From: Enterobacteria phage GEC-3S | Reading direction: 5' to 3' (one strand) | Sequence record: HE978309 | Length of the DNA stretch: 64,000 bases | Shown: positions 16,099 to 64,000 of the stretch, in pieces | How the letters are laid out: the number at the start of each line of letters is the position of its first letter | Numbering within the stretch: position 1 is the stretch's first letter | The notes under the pieces: model-generated | What the model saw: only the letters and a program-made list of their open reading frames with translations | Databases searched by the model: none | What the model was told of the DNA's origin: nothing | Made by a program: the position numbers and the translations under genes

Positions 16099-16133
16099 AA
16101 AAACGAAAAAGCCACCCTTTCGGGTGGCTTTTT
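16099..16133 (-). terminator. rho-independent terminator, potentially bidirectional
   Basis: AGCCACCC-tttc-GGGTGGCT hairpin flanked by an A-tract and a T-tract. Confidence 0.65.
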
Positions 16134-16363: not shown

Positions 16364-16762
16364 TTAAGCCAATCGAGTGAGTTTATAAATTGTTTTAAAG
16401 CATAGAGCTTTGATATCGTCTAAAACGCTCTGTAACGAGCTATCAACATCATTATAAATCTCACTAGCCATTTGCGTTAACTCTTGCAAATAGGCAATTT
16501 CGCTCATCTCCTTGCGGACGACCAACGTTGGCTGATAACGACCAGTGATCCCAATATTGGTTTCAGTGAAATTATCAACCAATTCTTGCATTTCAAGATA
16601 GAACTCTTCTAGAGCCTTATGTTTTGCATAAGATCCCGGACCAGTTACCCCAAAATGCGCAGAATGCATATAAGTAACACTCATCAGACATTCACCGATA
16701 AAGCGGTCAACTTTATTAGCTTTCCCCTCTTCGGACGTCTTTAGAAAATCAATGAATTTCAT
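16364..16762 (-). CDS. hypothetical protein
   Basis: track ORF; start moved to ATG (MKFIDF...) behind GGAGA. Confidence 0.5.
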   Translation of the reverse strand: MKFIDFLKTSEEGKANKVDRFIGECLMSVTYMHSAHFGVTGPGSYAKHKALEEFYLEMQELVDNFTETNIGITGRYQPTLVVRKEMSEIAYLQELTQMASEIYNDVDSSLQSVLDDIKALCFKTIYKLTRLA

Positions 16763-17051
16763 GTTCTCTATTCTCCATATTATGCAACATAACAAACTGT
16801 TGTGCGGCATATTCCCCCATAATAAAACACTGCTTAGAATCCATACATTTACTACGAGCGTACATCTTCATAACGTGGGCATGAAATTTCTGGCTGGTTT
16901 CAATGGAAGGAGATATTTTGTTTACATATACTATCATTGCACCGTCGAAATAATCAGTAAAGTCACCAGTTGGATCATATTGATCAGCACTGACACTTCC
17001 GACCGCAGTCAAGCATATTGCCGCTGTTAGAGTTTTACGAATAAATGACAT
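16749..17051 (-). CDS. rI: lysis-inhibition regulator rI-like periplasmic protein
   Basis: N-terminal signal/anchor MSFIRKTLTAAICLTAVGSVSA; about 100 aa; sits next to tk as rI does in T4; Cys spacing resembles T4 RI as I recall it. Confidence 0.6.
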   Translation of the reverse strand: MSFIRKTLTAAICLTAVGSVSADQYDPTGDFTDYFDGAMIVYVNKISPSIETSQKFHAHVMKMYARSKCMDSKQCFIMGEYAAQQFVMLHNMENREHEIH

Positions 17052-17120
17052 AAGTCATTCCCCCAGATTTAAAAATATTCAGTTATATTTATAATCTGGG
17101 GCTTTATTTATGATTAACTC

Positions 17121-31112: not shown

Positions 31113-31301
31113 TACTGATTCCTCAAATGAAAATATTTATTAACAATTGTCGCTTTGCGACGTGCCGTAGGCACTGACTACTTTTTAACCGAAACAAATT
31201 TTTATTATTCTAAAGATCTTTCTTCGTTTTGGTTATGTTTTAACCAATAACTATATTTTTATACAGTAATAAATAAAACGGGTACTATACGAGGACTTCT
31301 T

Positions 31302-31556
31302 ATGACAGAAGACATTTTGTTAAAACTCTATGATCGTTTGGATAACGAATTAGCAACATTGCGGGGTGAAGTTCTCTATTTGTCTAAATGCAATACAGAT
31401 CTGCTTAAGCAGATTGCAGAAAGGGATGATCAAATAAAATCCCTTTCAGGTGCATTACGTGATCGCGACAAGGCATTAGAGATTTTACAGCGTGTTACCA
31501 ATAAGGAAGAATTAAAAGACTTCTTACATGGTTATGCTCATGCCATCGATCTATAA
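31302..31556 (+). CDS. small coiled-coil protein on the opposite strand between genes 3 and 2
   Basis: track ORF; GAGGA 7 nt before ATG; AATAAATA late-promoter-like box at 31268-31275. Confidence 0.4.
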   Translation: MTEDILLKLYDRLDNELATLRGEVLYLSKCNTDLLKQIAERDDQIKSLSGALRDRDKALEILQRVTNKEELKDFLHGYAHAIDL

Positions 31557-31582
31557 TAAAAAAGCCCGTCATTGACGGGCTT
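31557..31582 (-). terminator. hairpin terminator after gene 2 (may also stop the plus-strand small ORF)
   Basis: AGCCCGTC-att-GACGGGCT hairpin flanked by A6 and a T-rich stretch. Confidence 0.55.
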
Positions 31583-32419: not shown

Positions 32420-32893
32420 CTATTTGTTAAGCCCTTTAAAACCGAACACTTTCTTTAATGCATGTTCGGTTATGATCTTAAACTCCATGTTATGCTTTTG
32501 GCATAATTTCACGGCAGCTAACCATTTTTCAGTATTTTTTGTGTATGTCCATACTTCATGCATATATCGTTGCTTTGTCTTCGCGGTCATTCTTTTTGGC
32601 TTTTCCGGTGGCCTTGTCTCTTTAGCTGGTTTAACTTCCCATAAATGCTCCTTGCCATCATCAAACTTAACGTAAAAATCCATAAAGTATCTGTGTCTTT
32701 TTCCGTCTGTTGATGACTCATAAGGAATTACTACGGTCTCAGATCCCCATTTTGCAACTCTAGGATTGCGGTCTAGCCACTGCATGATCCATCTTTCCCA
32801 GCTTGAACGGTATGTGATCTTACGTATATCCCCTTTATACTTTTCCTTATTCTCAGGAACATACTTGCCCTTATAAGTGTTAGATCCTCCCAT
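32420..32893 (-). CDS. 4: head completion protein gp4
   Basis: position; 157 aa; leader AGGGTGCTAAAATG identical to the gene 53 leader. Confidence 0.75.
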   Translation of the reverse strand: MGGSNTYKGKYVPENKEKYKGDIRKITYRSSWERWIMQWLDRNPRVAKWGSETVVIPYESSTDGKRHRYFMDFYVKFDDGKEHLWEVKPAKETRPPEKPKRMTAKTKQRYMHEVWTYTKNTEKWLAAVKLCQKHNMEFKIITEHALKKVFGFKGLNK

Positions 32894-32908
32894 TTTAGCA
32901 CCCTTTAT

Positions 32909-32916
32909 TATAAATA
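32909..32916 (+). promoter_or_regulatory. T4-type late promoter TATAAATA for gene 53
   Basis: exact TATAAATA 33 bp upstream of the ATG; a 7/8 match (GATAAATA) on the minus strand at 32925-32932 faces gene 4. Confidence 0.65.
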
Positions 32917-32948
32917 CATAATACTATTTATCAATTGAGGGTGCTAAA

Positions 32949-33503
32949 ATGCTCTTTTCTTTCTTCCCTGCCATTGAATACAACGGCAAGATGATTACTG
33001 ACATTGTGCGCAATTACCGCGCATATTTCAACGCAATAATTTCTGATTATAACATACAAACATATTACATTCAAGGTAGTCCACGACCGGAACAAGTTGC
33101 ATATGAAGTATACGGAAACCAACAACTTTACTGGATCTTGCTGATGCTTAATGACGTATACGATCCGTTCCATGACTGGATCACCGATCAAGAGACAGCA
33201 TATGAATCAGCCGAACAACGATATGCAAATGTAGGAGGAAATCAAGTATTATACCATGTTGATATTGACGGAAACAAGTATTGGAATCTTACCGAATATC
33301 CGAAAGGATCAAGCAATTGGTATGATAAAGGGGATATTCATCACCGTCATTTGCAGTTTCAAGGTGCATTATCGGCGGTAGACACACTGGAAGATGCGAT
33401 CCTCCGCAATGAGGAACGACGCAAGATCAAGATCATAGATCCTACACAAATTAAACAATTTATTAACGCATTCATACGAGAAATGGAAAAGGCTGATGTG
33501 TAA
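32949..33503 (+). CDS. 53: baseplate wedge protein gp53
   Basis: position before gene 5; 184 aa. Confidence 0.75.
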   Translation: MLFSFFPAIEYNGKMITDIVRNYRAYFNAIISDYNIQTYYIQGSPRPEQVAYEVYGNQQLYWILLMLNDVYDPFHDWITDQETAYESAEQRYANVGGNQVLYHVDIDGNKYWNLTEYPKGSSNWYDKGDIHHRHLQFQGALSAVDTLEDAILRNEERRKIKIIDPTQIKQFINAFIREMEKADV

Positions 33504-62469: not shown

Positions 62470-64000
62470 ATGAAAACTACCAAAGAACTGATGGAAAAAT
62501 GGTCCCCGCTGCTGGAGAACGAAAAACTGCCGGAAATCGCAACTGCGTCTAAGCAGAAACTGGTTGCTAAAATTCTGGAATCTCAGGAAGCGGATTTTGC
62601 TGTAGACCCGATCTATAAGGATGAAAAAGTTGTTGAAGCATTCGGTGGCTTTATCGCAGAAGCCGAAGTTGCTGGCGACCACGGTTATGACGCATCTCAG
62701 ATCGCGGCTGGTCAGACTACTGGTGCAATCACTAACGTAGGTCCGGCTGTTATCGGTATGGTTCGCCGTGCTATCCCTAACCTGATCGCATTTGATATTT
62801 GTGGTGTTCAGCCGATGAGCACTCCGACTAGCCAGATCTTTGCAATCCGTTCTGTATACGGTCCAGATCCGCTGGCAGGTGGCAATGCTCAGAATGTTCG
62901 TGAAGCATTCCATCCGATGTATGCACCTGATGCGTTCCATAGCTCTCTTGCTGCTAAAGGTGCAGCTGTAGGTTCTCCGACCGGGACTCCGTTTGCTAAA
63001 CTAACTATCAATACTCAGATTGAAGCAGGTGATATTGTACACCACACCTTCGCAGAAACTGGCATTGCATATCTGCAAAACGTTACCGCTGGCGCAGTAA
63101 CCCCGACCAAAGCTGGCAGCGAGTCAGATGATGAAGTTGTCATGAAGCTGATGGAAGAAGGTAAACTGGCTGAAATCGCTTTCGGTATGGCGACTTCCAT
63201 TGCCGAAATTCAGGAAGGCTTTAACGGTTCCAGCAATAACCCGTGGGCTGAAATGTCAATGCGTATTGACAAACAGGTTGTTGAAGCGAAATCTCGCCAA
63301 TTGAAAGCCCGTTACTCTATCGAAGTTGCGCAGGATCTGCGTGCTGTACACGGTATGGATGCTGACGCTGAACTGAATGCTATCCTGGCTAACGAAGTTC
63401 TGCTTGAAATCAACCGTGAAATCGTTGACGTCATCAACTTTACCGCTCAGGTTGGTAAGACTGGTATGACTCAGACCGTTGGTTCTAAAGCTGGTGTATT
63501 TGACCTGCAAGACCCGATTGATACTCGCGGTGCTCGTTGGGCTGGTGAATCCTTCAAATCTCTGATCTACCAGATCGACAAAGAAGCTGCTGAAATCGCT
63601 CGTCAGACTGGTCGCGGTGCTGGTAACTTTGTTATCGCTTCCCGTAACGTTGTAAACATTCTGGCTTCTGCTGATCAGGGTATCAGTCTTGCTATGCAGG
63701 GTGCTGCAAAAGGTCTGAATACCGACACCACTAAAGCTGTTTTCGCTGGTGTTCTGGCTGGTAAGTACAAAGTATTCATCGACCAGTATGCTCGTCAGGA
63801 CTACTTCACCGTAGGTTACAAAGGCGATAACGAAATGGATGCTGGTATCTACTATGCTCCGTATGTTGCTCTGACTCCGCTGCGTGCAACTGATCCGCAG
63901 TCTTTCCACCCGGTTCTGGGCTTCAAGACTCGCTATGGCATCGGTATTAACCCGTTTGCAGACAGCAAATCCCAGGCACCGTCCGCTCGCATCACCTCCG
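62470..64000 (+). CDS. 23: major capsid protein gp23 (3' end truncated by the window)
   Basis: ATG at 62470 behind AAGG; VRRAIPNLIAFDICGVQPM, NEMDAGIYYAPYVALTPLR resemble T4 gp23; frame open to the window end; absent from the ORF track. Confidence 0.95.
   Translation, partial: MKTTKELMEKWSPLLENEKLPEIATASKQKLVAKILESQEADFAVDPIYKDEKVVEAFGGFIAEAEVAGDHGYDASQIAAGQTTGAITNVGPAVIGMVRRAIPNLIAFDICGVQPMSTPTSQIFAIRSVYGPDPLAGGNAQNVREAFHPMYAPDAFHSSLAAKGAAVGSPTGTPFAKLTINTQIEAGDIVHHTFAETGIAYLQNVTAGAVTPTKAGSESDDEVVMKLMEEGKLAEIAFGMATSIAEIQEGFNGSSNNPWAEMSMRIDKQVVEAKSRQLKARYSIEVAQDLRAVHGMDADAELNAILANEVLLEINREIVDVINFTAQVGKTGMTQTVGSKAGVFDLQDPIDTRGARWAGESFKSLIYQIDKEAAEIARQTGRGAGNFVIASRNVVNILASADQGISLAMQGAAKGLNTDTTKAVFAGVLAGKYKVFIDQYARQDYFTVGYKGDNEMDAGIYYAPYVALTPLRATDPQSFHPVLGFKTRYGIGINPFADSKSQAPSARITS

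Follow-up and report, generated by a model that had tools for sequence, protein, structure and literature searches.

The gene 4 / gene 53 intergenic region

The stretch of DNA analyzed here, a 64-kb window from Enterobacteria phage GEC-3S (HE978309), is a Krischvirus sequence (RB49/Phi1 group). On its minus strand, gene 4 (32420..32893) encodes the head completion or head closure protein gp4 (157 aa; Pfam PF08722), with an ATG that is the complement of CAT at 32891-32893. Gene 53 (32949..33503), on the plus strand, starts at the ATG at 32949-32951 and encodes the baseplate wedge subunit gp53 (184 aa; PF11246, E 1e-58). The translation-initiation regions of these divergent genes form a perfect 14-bp inverted repeat, in which the left arm CATTTTAGCACCCT (32891..32904) and the right arm AGGGTGCTAAAATG (32938..32951) are exact reverse complements, 33 nt apart, and the outer triplets of the arms are the two start codons. 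Read on the minus strand, the left arm is likewise AGGGTGCTAAAATG, with an SD-like GGGTG, a spacer CTAAA and ATG; gene 4 and gene 53 share the same 14-nt translation-initiation leader.

Two late-promoter boxes lie between the arms, as the initial annotation had also pointed out. The plus-strand box TATAAATA (32909..32916) faces the rightward unit, with genes 53 and 5 first, and corresponds to the predicted RB49 late promoter Pl:64518 (Nolan et al., 2006; PMC1524935). The minus-strand box GATAAATA (32925..32932; TATTTATC on the plus strand) faces the leftward unit of genes 4 and 2. They are separated by a central 8 nt, CATAATAC (32917..32924), in which none of the four possible pairs is complementary. 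The order of elements is thus CAT, anti-SD, TATAAATA, 7-8 nt, TATTTATA, SD and ATG. The leftward gene 4 / gene 2 late unit ends at an intrinsic terminator on the minus strand (31562..31582), which is the RB49 terminator 63199-63215 (PMC1524935 supplement) and is convergent with the plus-strand ORF130w homologue.

Both boxes share the 8-bp sequence, the position and the conservation in orthologous places of T4-type late promoters. The start codon follows the end of the box by 32 nt at gene 53 and by 31 nt at gene 4, and the six other exact boxes that lie within 60 nt before an ORF in the window are 27-34 nt from that ORF. The minus-strand gene 4 box is absent from the 2006 list of RB49 predictions (PMC1524935), to which the predicted Krischvirus gene 4 late promoter (GATAAATA) is an addition; in RB49 the T at -13 of the late-promoter box is reported to be poorly conserved (PMC1524935). 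The T4 GenBank records hold no promoter features for the gene 4 / gene 53 region. By the rule that the late box occupies -13 to -6 (PMC1524935), transcription is expected to start near 32922 on the plus strand and near 32919 on the minus strand. Since both of these starts lie in the central 8 nt, each late mRNA would carry its own arm alone.

A sigma70-like match on the minus strand (TTGATA-16-TATAAT, 11/12) was considered as an early promoter of gene 4 and rejected. Its start would fall inside the SD, the match is a product of the overlap of the two late boxes, and its -35 element is gone wherever the minus-strand box of relatives is AATAAATA or TATAAATA.

Taken together, the 61-bp stretch is best described as a putative late control region that serves genes 4 and 53 in both directions and has two ribosome-binding sites, its promoter activity being deduced from the boxes. 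The initial annotation placed it at an early/late strand switch point, which is a mislabel: the minus-strand genes 4, 2 and 3 belong to the late virion genes, and the region parts two divergent late transcription units. A permissive Rfam scan of 32600-33250 returned no known RNA family, its matches being generic hairpins only (plant miRNA precursors, a CRISPR repeat; E 0.26-0.64) that score far under the gathering scores.

Rarity of the repeat and variation within Krischvirus

The palindrome is the sole perfect inverted repeat of at least 14 bp with a loop of at most 100 nt in the 64-kb window. As 200 dinucleotide-preserving shuffles gave a mean of 0.04 such repeats, its presence goes beyond chance. 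No further copy of the 14-mer was found in the window apart from the two arms, with two mismatches allowed. Leaders that agree over all 14 nt are also rare in the close relative Whisky: of the 3240 pairs that its 81 annotated gene leaders allow, 7 (0.2%) do so. Six of these pairs come from a single family of repeated early-gene cassettes, and the remaining one is gene 4 / gene 53.

We assigned the alleles of 57 Krischvirus records by identity and length, 20 of them being read base by base, and three alleles of the 61 nt cover all records. Only two sites vary. Each of them is located in an arm and disrupts the palindrome, with no compensating change in the other arm. At position 32945, in the right arm, the C of the window is replaced by A in 14 of the 57 records, including RB49, JSE and ECD7, whereas phiS and three other records (4/57) carry an insertion of one T in the left arm. 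The A allele gives a stronger SD, with a predicted duplex with the 3' end of 16S rRNA of -9.9 kcal/mol versus -6.3 for the window leader, and weakens the hairpin by ~6.7 kcal/mol. Nevertheless, the variant palindromes, with one mismatch or one bulge, are still predicted to fold (-19 to -23 kcal/mol), so that a structural role is compatible with these variants.

Near-identical genomes differ in whether they have the C or the A allele, and the two are scattered among them (Phi1, with C, is sister to ECD7, with A), which fits recurrent change or recombination at 32945. The spacer identity between the arms is not stably kept within the genus. As the Krischvirus genomes are ~98% identical around the site, conservation within the genus says little either way, and we dropped it as a sign of constraint.

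Conservation of the layout in T4-type lineages

Intermediate lineages (designated by L numbers below) were obtained by protein search and contig look-ups. In 13 of 14 lineages, T4 included, both strands have a NATAAATA box at the corresponding site, and the minus-strand position holds G, A or T followed by ATAAATA in 13/14. The dyad layout, with the plus-strand NATAAATA box to the left of the minus-strand one, is thereby found in T4 and 12 further lineages, and the anti-SD can pair with the SD in 13/13 of these. The distance from box to start codon is 26-39 nt in 12 of the 13 box-bearing lineages, the exception being L124, with 90 nt to the gene 4 start. Scanning IMG/VR with a gp4 alignment gave 80 loci, and none of these distant T4-like contigs held a comparable intergenic region, gp53 being in nearly all of them 0.9-1.3 kb from gp4 with another gene between them; a metagenome scan with gp53 returned two near-identical relatives only.

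In T4, the orthologous locus has the same gene order and the same interleaving of boxes 7-8 nt apart, with boxes ~26-34 nt from the ATGs and the anti-SD facing the SD. In contrast to the window, the two T4 leaders differ (CATTGGATTCTCC versus GGAGGGCCCATG), and the T4 region folds no better than shuffles (z +0.69 and -1.53). The window departs from T4 in having identical SD-to-ATG spacers, and thus perfect 14-bp arms, and in the G at -13 of its minus-strand box.

The extent of the perfect run from the start codons is variable: 14 nt in the window, 11 in L125, 6-7 in L119, L120, L121 and L124, and 2-4 in L122, L126-128, T4, L003 and L006. The arm sequences themselves are not conserved in L119, L122, L124 or remoter relatives, and gapped similarity of the two leaders is null-like in L119, L122 and L124. 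In L125, both arms contain GGTTCAAAATG, which differs from the window at four positions in each arm. Compared with the common two-way layout, the identity of the SD-to-ATG spacers is the sole special feature of this locus.

The initial annotation had proposed conservation of the palindrome in related phages as a check on its interpretation, and absence from close relatives with the same gene order as evidence against that interpretation. The outcome goes largely against it, as the palindrome has uncompensated variants within the genus and is degraded (L119, L124) or missing (L122) in the nearest relatives outside it that share the gene order; what is conserved is the pair of NATAAATA boxes. 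Arms taken from one genome form pairs more often than arms reassigned among genomes (73.8% versus 67.5% of cells paired). The corresponding covariation scores are 0.272 and 0.177; none of 500 shuffles reaches either observed value, but sliding the partner by +1 gives 0.264, near the observed score. In these alignments, the better pairing within genomes indicates concerted evolution of the arms.

Origin of the perfect palindrome and alternative explanations

We propose, with a probability of roughly 0.55, that the perfect palindrome is a by-product of a mirror-like control region in which the arms have been homogenized, and that it has no dedicated function. Two interleaved gp55-type late promoters would drive transcription outward, rightward from TATAAATA and leftward from GATAAATA. 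Both mRNAs would begin in the non-symmetric centre, each with a 5' leader of ~26-27 nt at the end of which lie the SD and AUG of its own gene. The mirror arrangement of two promoters, two SDs and two start codons makes the region a quasi-palindrome, and such a quasi-palindrome would be imposed by function in every T4-type phage that has these genes in the same order. In the ancestry of Krischvirus, the free positions, which are those of the SD-to-AUG spacers only, would then have become identical between the arms, through intramolecular template switching (one arm being corrected from the other) or an inverted duplication of the promoter-leader module. On the comparative data, one of these two mechanisms is the likely route of homogenization. 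As a consequence, both genes would have the same, rather weak ribosome-binding site, and an RNA or single-stranded DNA spanning the region would form a stable hairpin.

Template switching that perfects quasi-palindromes was first described in T4 rIIB and has been proposed to keep short bacterial inverted repeats perfect (PMC7202029; PMC5941160). The palindrome resembles the cases of quasi-palindrome correction (Ripley, 1982, for T4 rIIB; thyA and lacZ reporters in E. coli) in being a short, spaced inverted repeat, with single changes in an arm that toggle between perfect and imperfect and with arms that evolve in concert (PMC7202029; PMC5941160). As expected for template switching, the variants are confined to the arms, they toggle the palindrome, and the arms are more alike within than between genomes. 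However, concerted change of the arms is equally expected from selection for pairing. The known cases are laboratory mutation hotspots or genome-wide statistics, whereas the process at this locus is deduced from comparative data only; unlike in those cases, the quasi-palindrome would be imposed by promoter and ribosome-binding-site function.

The mobile PeSL cassettes of Phi1 and RB49 offer a parallel within the same phage group, as duplicated regulatory cassettes that end in identical SD and ATG leaders (Arbiol et al., 2010; PMC2839356), for example GGAGAATCAAAATG at four early ORFs; such cassettes were also found in the leaders compared here. Like the pair in the window, these are repeated regulatory modules with an identical SD and start codon at the end. 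In contrast, PeSLs combine a sigma70-type early promoter with a stem-loop, exist in dozens of direct copies in hyperplastic regions and mediate gene shuffling (PMC2839356), while the locus described here has just one pair, inverted, whose promoters are late and whose neighbors are core virion genes. With late-type promoters and a 14-mer that occurs only twice, and inverted, the region is not a PeSL cassette. If the by-product explanation is correct, the locus is an ordinary control region, though a clean natural case of a symmetry imposed by function that mutation has sharpened to a perfect palindrome, and it warns against taking every perfect palindrome between divergent genes for an operator.

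An unlikely alternative is that the repeat acts as a symmetric translational lock of the type known for T4 e, soc, 49 and I-TevI. Read-through RNA would fold into a hairpin (~-26 kcal/mol) that hides the SD and AUG of the downstream gene, which is gene 53 if the RNA is plus-strand and gene 4 or an inserted endonuclease gene if it is minus-strand, and the late mRNAs would be translated as they start in the loop and lack the 5' arm. Such control has been established for e, soc, 49 and I-TevI of T4 and also for free-standing endonuclease genes (PMC3014915; PMC2988022). The geometry of the locus fits the known cases, with the SD and AUG in the 3' arm, a late promoter in the loop and the expected start between the arms; in T4 e, soc, 49 and I-TevI, and in Aeh1 mobE, the SD and AUG likewise lie in the 3' arm of a helix of which late transcripts lack the 5' arm (PMC3014915; PMC2988022). 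The predicted folds are strong on both strands (-28.5 and -27.7 kcal/mol; z -5.9 and -4.7), with a 14-bp helix that covers the SD and AUG. Further points in favor are the recurrence of the lock layout at a second site of the window, where it precedes the antiholin gene that follows tk, the covariation of arms within genomes with an 11-bp helix of different sequence in L125, and the T4 genes repEB and repEA, minus-strand genes inside gene 5 that point toward gene 4.

A source of read-through RNA, however, was not found in the published predictions for RB49, which place no minus-strand early promoter at 60694-98401 and no plus-strand one upstream. On either strand, the region is preceded by the antisense of late genes, and the ORF130w unit, the only read-through candidate, ends at a hairpin. 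Known RBS-sequestering hairpins are situated downstream of same-strand early or middle genes, and hence on long read-through mRNAs, which is not the situation between genes 4 and 53. Moreover, genes 4 and 53 are late and have no obvious need for a lock. Upkeep of the helix in relatives gives a mixed picture: pairing exceeds that of all 500 shuffles but the +1 slid control is nearly as high, and the helix is not kept in L119, L122 and L124, being degraded to -9.1 kcal/mol in L119, the closest outgroup, and absent from L122, T4, L003 and L006. Within Krischvirus, the uncompensated mismatch of 14 records argues against a lock.

[quoted passage not shown] The region could accordingly be modelled as a two-way translational lock and insulator, in which only loop-started mRNAs are translated and each RBS is the anti-RBS of its divergent neighbor; we consider this form doubtful and less likely still. 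Should a lock exist, it would extend the T4 mechanism of late promoters within RBS hairpins to a shared, two-way form, which would be of moderate specialist interest for phage gene regulation. We also discarded the hairpin as a terminator. On the plus strand, the U-richness that follows the 3' arm is accounted for by the start of gp53, a conserved stretch rich in Leu and Phe (MLFSFF, likewise in other genera); the stem has an AT-rich base, and there is no U tract on the minus strand.

Coincidence, by which a constrained SD, ATG and A-rich spacer reached 14/14 by chance, is improbable. In its favor, 15 of 81 leaders in this phage group end in AAAATG and 3.2% of random leader pairs have at least 11/14 identities, but agreement at all 14 positions is, outside the early cassettes, confined to this pair. 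The low number of such inverted repeats expected per window and the better pairing of arms within than between genomes also weigh against it.

We regard it as slightly less probable again that the arms are half-sites of a phage or host DNA-binding protein, or that the leaders are an operator for an RNA-binding repressor of gp4 and gp53. The dyad symmetry is perfect, the promoters lie between the arms, and with identical leaders a factor that recognizes one mRNA would recognize the other. Yet the 14-mer has no other copy in the window, and hence no regulon, and the arm centres are 47 bp (~4.5 helical turns) apart, which is atypical for a dimeric operator. The symmetry of such an operator is present at the locus, while its spacing, recurrence and conservation outside the genus, where the arm sequences are not kept, are not. 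T4-type late transcription depends on gp55, gp33 and the sliding clamp, and sequence-specific activators or repressors have no place in it as described in two sources (PMC1524935; PMC3014915); head-completion and baseplate wedge proteins also have no functional link that calls for shared control. Overlapping divergent late-promoter pairs are known elsewhere (RB69 Pl:80613/Pl:80684 and RB49 Pl:144977/Pl:145030; Nolan et al., 2006; PMC1524935), and when we looked for a comparable palindrome at the second divergent late pair of RB49, none was found. The suggestion in the initial annotation of a dedicated regulatory role, as coordinated translation or a protein-binding palindrome, thus found no evidence in its favor, given the lack of other copies of the 14-mer and of symmetry at the second RB49 pair.

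Least probable of all, and in our view remote, is that the palindrome is part of the recognition or cleavage site of the homing endonuclease inserted at gene 4 in some relatives, or a scar or product of double-strand-break repair at this hotspot. In its favor, six of the 57 records and one metagenome contig have a 231-aa NUMOD3 endonuclease gene directly after the start codon of gene 4, a sharply bounded and highly divergent allele of gene 4 adjoins the region, and further endonuclease genes lie next to gene 2 in Phi1, Skers, PHB13 and Makalu_002. Against it, the arms are identical with and without the endonuclease gene and therefore do not distinguish cut from immune alleles, the differences between the two kinds of genome fall in the first gene 4 codons, and the dyad architecture, present in T4 and distant lineages, is older than the insertions. 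The inserted NUMOD3 gene takes its SD and ATG from the left arm. Takeover of the left arm by a homing endonuclease gene is thus possible with the region unchanged, an observation that we count in favor of the by-product explanation.

Organisation of the gene 4/gene 53 intergenic region

The divergent starts of gene 4 (minus strand; left arm, 32891-32904) and gene 53 (plus strand; right arm, 32938-32951) lie in a perfect 14-bp inverted repeat. The arms, start codons and boxes are located exactly where the initial annotation placed them, and its reading of identical leaders accompanied by promoter boxes (32909-32916 on the plus strand, 32925-32932 on the minus strand) is correct. The 61 bp consist of an arm (14 bp), TTAT, TATAAATA, CATAATAC, TATTTATC, AATTG and the second arm (14 bp), and the central 8 nt (CATAATAC) have no self-complementarity. 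The 1.1 kb around the site is matched by 57 phage records (80-99.5% identity), all from Krischvirus, the RB49/Phi1/JSE group of T4-type coliphages; their annotations name the two ORFs gene 4, for head completion or closure, and gene 53, for the baseplate wedge. Residues 43-143 of the gene 4 product (32423-32893, minus) match PF08722, the TnsA-like endonuclease N-terminal domain of Pfam (E 4e-21). In the Phi1 annotation the local order is 57B, 57A, 1, 3 (minus), ORF130 (plus), 2, 4 (minus) and 53, 5, 5.1, 5.4, 6, 7 (plus). Since the virion genes 4, 2 and 3 are all late, the site parts two divergent late units and is not the early/late strand switch point that had been proposed. The leftward unit is closed by a terminator at 31562-31582, the counterpart of the RB49 terminator at 63199-63215.

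In T4-type late promoters the box occupies positions -13 to -6 (PMC1524935), so that transcripts should start near 32922 (plus) and near 32919 (minus), with late mRNA leaders of 26-27 nt that each contain their own arm only. The boxes end 32 nt (gene 53) and 31 nt (gene 4) from the ATG; among the remaining exact TATAAATA boxes of the window, six have an ORF at most 60 nt downstream and lie 27-34 nt from it. The plus-strand box corresponds to Pl:64518, one of the late promoters that Nolan et al. predicted for RB49; their list contains no minus-strand promoter for gene 4, and they report poor conservation of the -13 T in this phage (PMC1524935). A near-consensus sigma70-type promoter on the minus strand (32907-32934, TTGATA-16-TATAAT, 11/12) is probably fortuitous, since its -35 element is lost in relatives with a AATAAATA or TATAAATA minus-strand box; the match arises from the overlap of the two late boxes, and its start would fall inside the Shine-Dalgarno element (SD) of gene 4.

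The window holds a single perfect inverted repeat of at least 14 bp with a loop of at most 100 nt, where shuffled sequences would give 0.04, and no third copy of the 14-mer was found there with two mismatches allowed. A stricter null came from the related phage Whisky, where 81 annotated genes give 3240 pairs of 14-nt leaders. Seven of these pairs are identical: six represent one repeated early-cassette family (GGAGAATCAAAATG), and the 4/53 pair is the remaining one. The identity of the two leaders is thus not due to chance. The leader GGAGAATCAAAATG recurs at four early Whisky ORFs (CDS starts 1706, 13323, 15131 and 15572, minus) and, with a 1-nt difference, at a fifth; these probably represent the early regulatory PeSL cassettes known from Phi1/RB49. 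Identical leaders through duplication of regulatory modules, as in PeSL cassettes, are a known habit of Krischvirus-type phages (PMC2839356). The only other perfect inverted repeat of at least 12 bp in the window (16106-16133, AAAAAGCCACCC/GGGTGGCTTTTT, 4-nt loop) looks like a bidirectional intrinsic terminator.

Conservation of the layout and of the arms

The layout recurs in T4, where it spans 53 nt (CAT, N, CTCC, TATAAATA, 7 nt, TATTTATA, GGAG, N, ATG). Intermediate relatives, gathered by gp53 protein search and contig look-ups (with L003 and L006 from IMG/VR), range in gp53 identity from 89% (contig L119) through 85% (L120), 81% (L121), 79% (L122), 77% (L124) and 72% (L125) to 61-63% (L126-128). 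Of 14 lineages, 13 carry two NATAAATA boxes, a left-hand one on the plus strand and a right-hand one on the minus strand, each at a distance of 26-39 nt from the start it serves; only the minus-strand box of L124 departs from this range. There the 4/53 intergenic region (840-954) measures 113 nt compared to the usual ~55, and an extra segment with its own hairpin separates the gene 4 start from the promoter pair and puts this box 90 nt from the ATG. A two-way late promoter between facing SDs is therefore an ancient trait. Such an arrangement is quasi-palindromic by necessity, and every version folds with promoter-promoter and anti-SD/SD pairing.

The unusual feature is solely the identity of the SD-to-ATG spacers. 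Counted from the start codons, the arms pair perfectly over 14 nt in the window, 11 nt in L125, 6-7 nt in L119, L120, L121 and L124, and 2-4 nt in L122, L126-128, T4, L003 and L006. By gapped score against the Whisky leader null, the window pair lies at the 0.6% tail and L120, L121 and L125 at 3.7%; L119, L122 and L124 are null-like (33-93%). The region of L119, the closest outgroup, folds at only -9.1 kcal/mol, compared to -25.9 kcal/mol for the window. With the arms of 15 lineages anchored on their start codons, pairing holds in 73.8% of cells, versus 67.5% with right arms dealt among genomes (73.8% is reached in 0/500 shuffles). The covariation score is 0.272 versus 0.177 shuffled (0/500), with a control slid by +1 giving nearly as much (0.264) owing to A/T runs. 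In L125, GGTTCAAAATG is present in both arms, with four differences from the window that are the same in each. These comparisons point to a moderate signal of concerted evolution, compatible both with selection for pairing and with mechanical homogenisation.

Conservation within the genus carries little weight, as the genomes are ~98% identical around the site. Three alleles of the region cover the 57 records by identity and length (20/57 read base by base): the perfect form (39 records), C to A at 32945 (14, including RB49, JSE, ECD7, KFS-EC, ELT3 and ELT4) and an extra T in the left arm (4; phiS, FL15, Delraymugoa and Aragogtheria). Both variant sites fall inside an arm and disrupt the palindrome, with no compensating change; beyond these records, the metagenome contig L117 carries an extra A in the right arm. 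The A allele at 32945 has a longer SD match to 16S rRNA (-9.9 vs -6.3 kcal/mol), and its hairpin loses ~6.7 kcal/mol. C and A alleles are intermixed in a right-flank tree (Phi1, C, is sister to ECD7, A), a scatter compatible with recurrent change or recombination at 32945.

An exception to the ~98% identity is gene 4, which has two very different alleles: a divergent one with sharp borders (32504-32862) is 58-77% identical in Whisky, with flanks 98-100% identical. JK32, ELT3, phiS and FL04 match at ~88-90% over a wider 451-nt query, similar to Whisky. As the border lies ~30 nt inside gene 4, the intergenic region and first gene 4 codons look like a recombination junction.

Origin of the perfect palindrome

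We favor, at a probability of roughly 0.55, that this is the Krischvirus version of the known two-way late control region with secondarily homogenised arms, a by-product without dedicated function. A function-imposed quasi-palindrome is the classic substrate of template-switch correction, which renders inverted repeats more perfect; this process was first described in T4 rIIB and is the proposed keeper of perfect short inverted repeats in bacterial genomes (PMC7202029, PMC5941160). The spacers, exactly the positions identical here, would be the only ones that can be overwritten without harm. Inverted duplication of one promoter-leader module would lead to the same outcome. Consistent with a by-product, relatives show a patchy distribution of perfect arms, an allele that disrupts the palindrome is common (type phage included), the other RB49 divergent late pair (ORF247/gene 34) lacks symmetry of this kind, and a homing endonuclease gene can adopt the left arm unchanged. 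Conservation of the palindrome among relatives, the test put forward with the initial annotation, largely fails, with alleles including that of RB49 breaking it; a dedicated regulatory role for the palindrome is unsupported and partly contradicted by this test.

The main alternative, which we regard as considerably less likely, is a translational lock as in T4 e, soc, 49 and I-TevI, where the late promoter lies inside the hairpin, the 3' arm holds SD and AUG, and late mRNAs lack the 5' arm (PMC3014915, PMC2988022). The geometry here is the same, and both strands are predicted to fold at ~-28 kcal/mol (z-scores -5.9 and -4.7). However, known locks act on long early or middle transcripts, for which no source was found here: upstream DNA on each strand is antisense to late genes, and the published RB49 predictions contain no minus-strand early promoters in 60694-98401 and no plus-strand early promoters upstream. 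The sole candidate source is the small plus-strand ORF130w unit (AATAAATA box at 31268-31275), which ends at a hairpin. Its 84-aa ORF (31302-31556; RB49 ORF130w homologue, no family) stands alone among minus-strand genes, 26 nt downstream of the box, and converges with gene 2 at the terminator hairpin 31562-31582, which on the plus strand has no U tract. In T4, repEB and repEA inside gene 5 do point at gene 4, yet the T4 hairpin here is not significant. A second such arrangement in the window (16752-17120, minus) does favor a lock: the gene for a 100-aa antiholin (RI family, Pfam PF24205, E 2e-23), directly downstream of tk, has its TATAAATA box (17093-17086) in the loop of a 9-bp hairpin (CCCCAGAUU/AAUCUGGGG) with the SD under the 3' arm (fold z -5.9). 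Here, as at T4 e and soc, a late promoter lies within a hairpin that hides the ribosome-binding site, and a true early gene is present upstream on the same strand. A symmetric lock of both ribosome-binding sites, which would be modestly novel, is possible at rather long odds.

Pure coincidence is unlikely given the shuffle and leader-null numbers. A protein operator or shared translational operator, for which the symmetry itself and nothing further speaks, is if anything less plausible, the element being single-copy, with centres 47 bp apart and a sequence that is not conserved; no Rfam family matches the region. A link between the palindrome and homing endonucleases is improbable, since presence or absence of the endonuclease gene makes no difference to the arms.

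Homing endonuclease genes around gene 4

A 231-aa NUMOD3 homing endonuclease gene directly follows the gene 4 ATG, immediately left of window position 32891, in 6/57 Krischvirus records (MIZ6, L017 794-1489; Brandy, ELT4, MIZ2/3 and PTE-Eco09) and in the metagenome contig L117. It takes the left arm for its own SD and ATG, and gene 4 has a new leader (GAAGGTGGTATAATG), a TAATG stop/start overlap and first codons MGNCN versus MGGSN. Varied endonuclease genes, missing from the window, surround genes 2 and 4 in relatives, including Phi1 ORF130.1 (L022 4926-5957) and those of Skers (L028 1-209, GIY-YIG), PHB13 (L026 24-1046) and Makalu_002 (L018 1-32, HNH). Homing endonuclease genes have a hotspot in the segment between genes 3 and 53.
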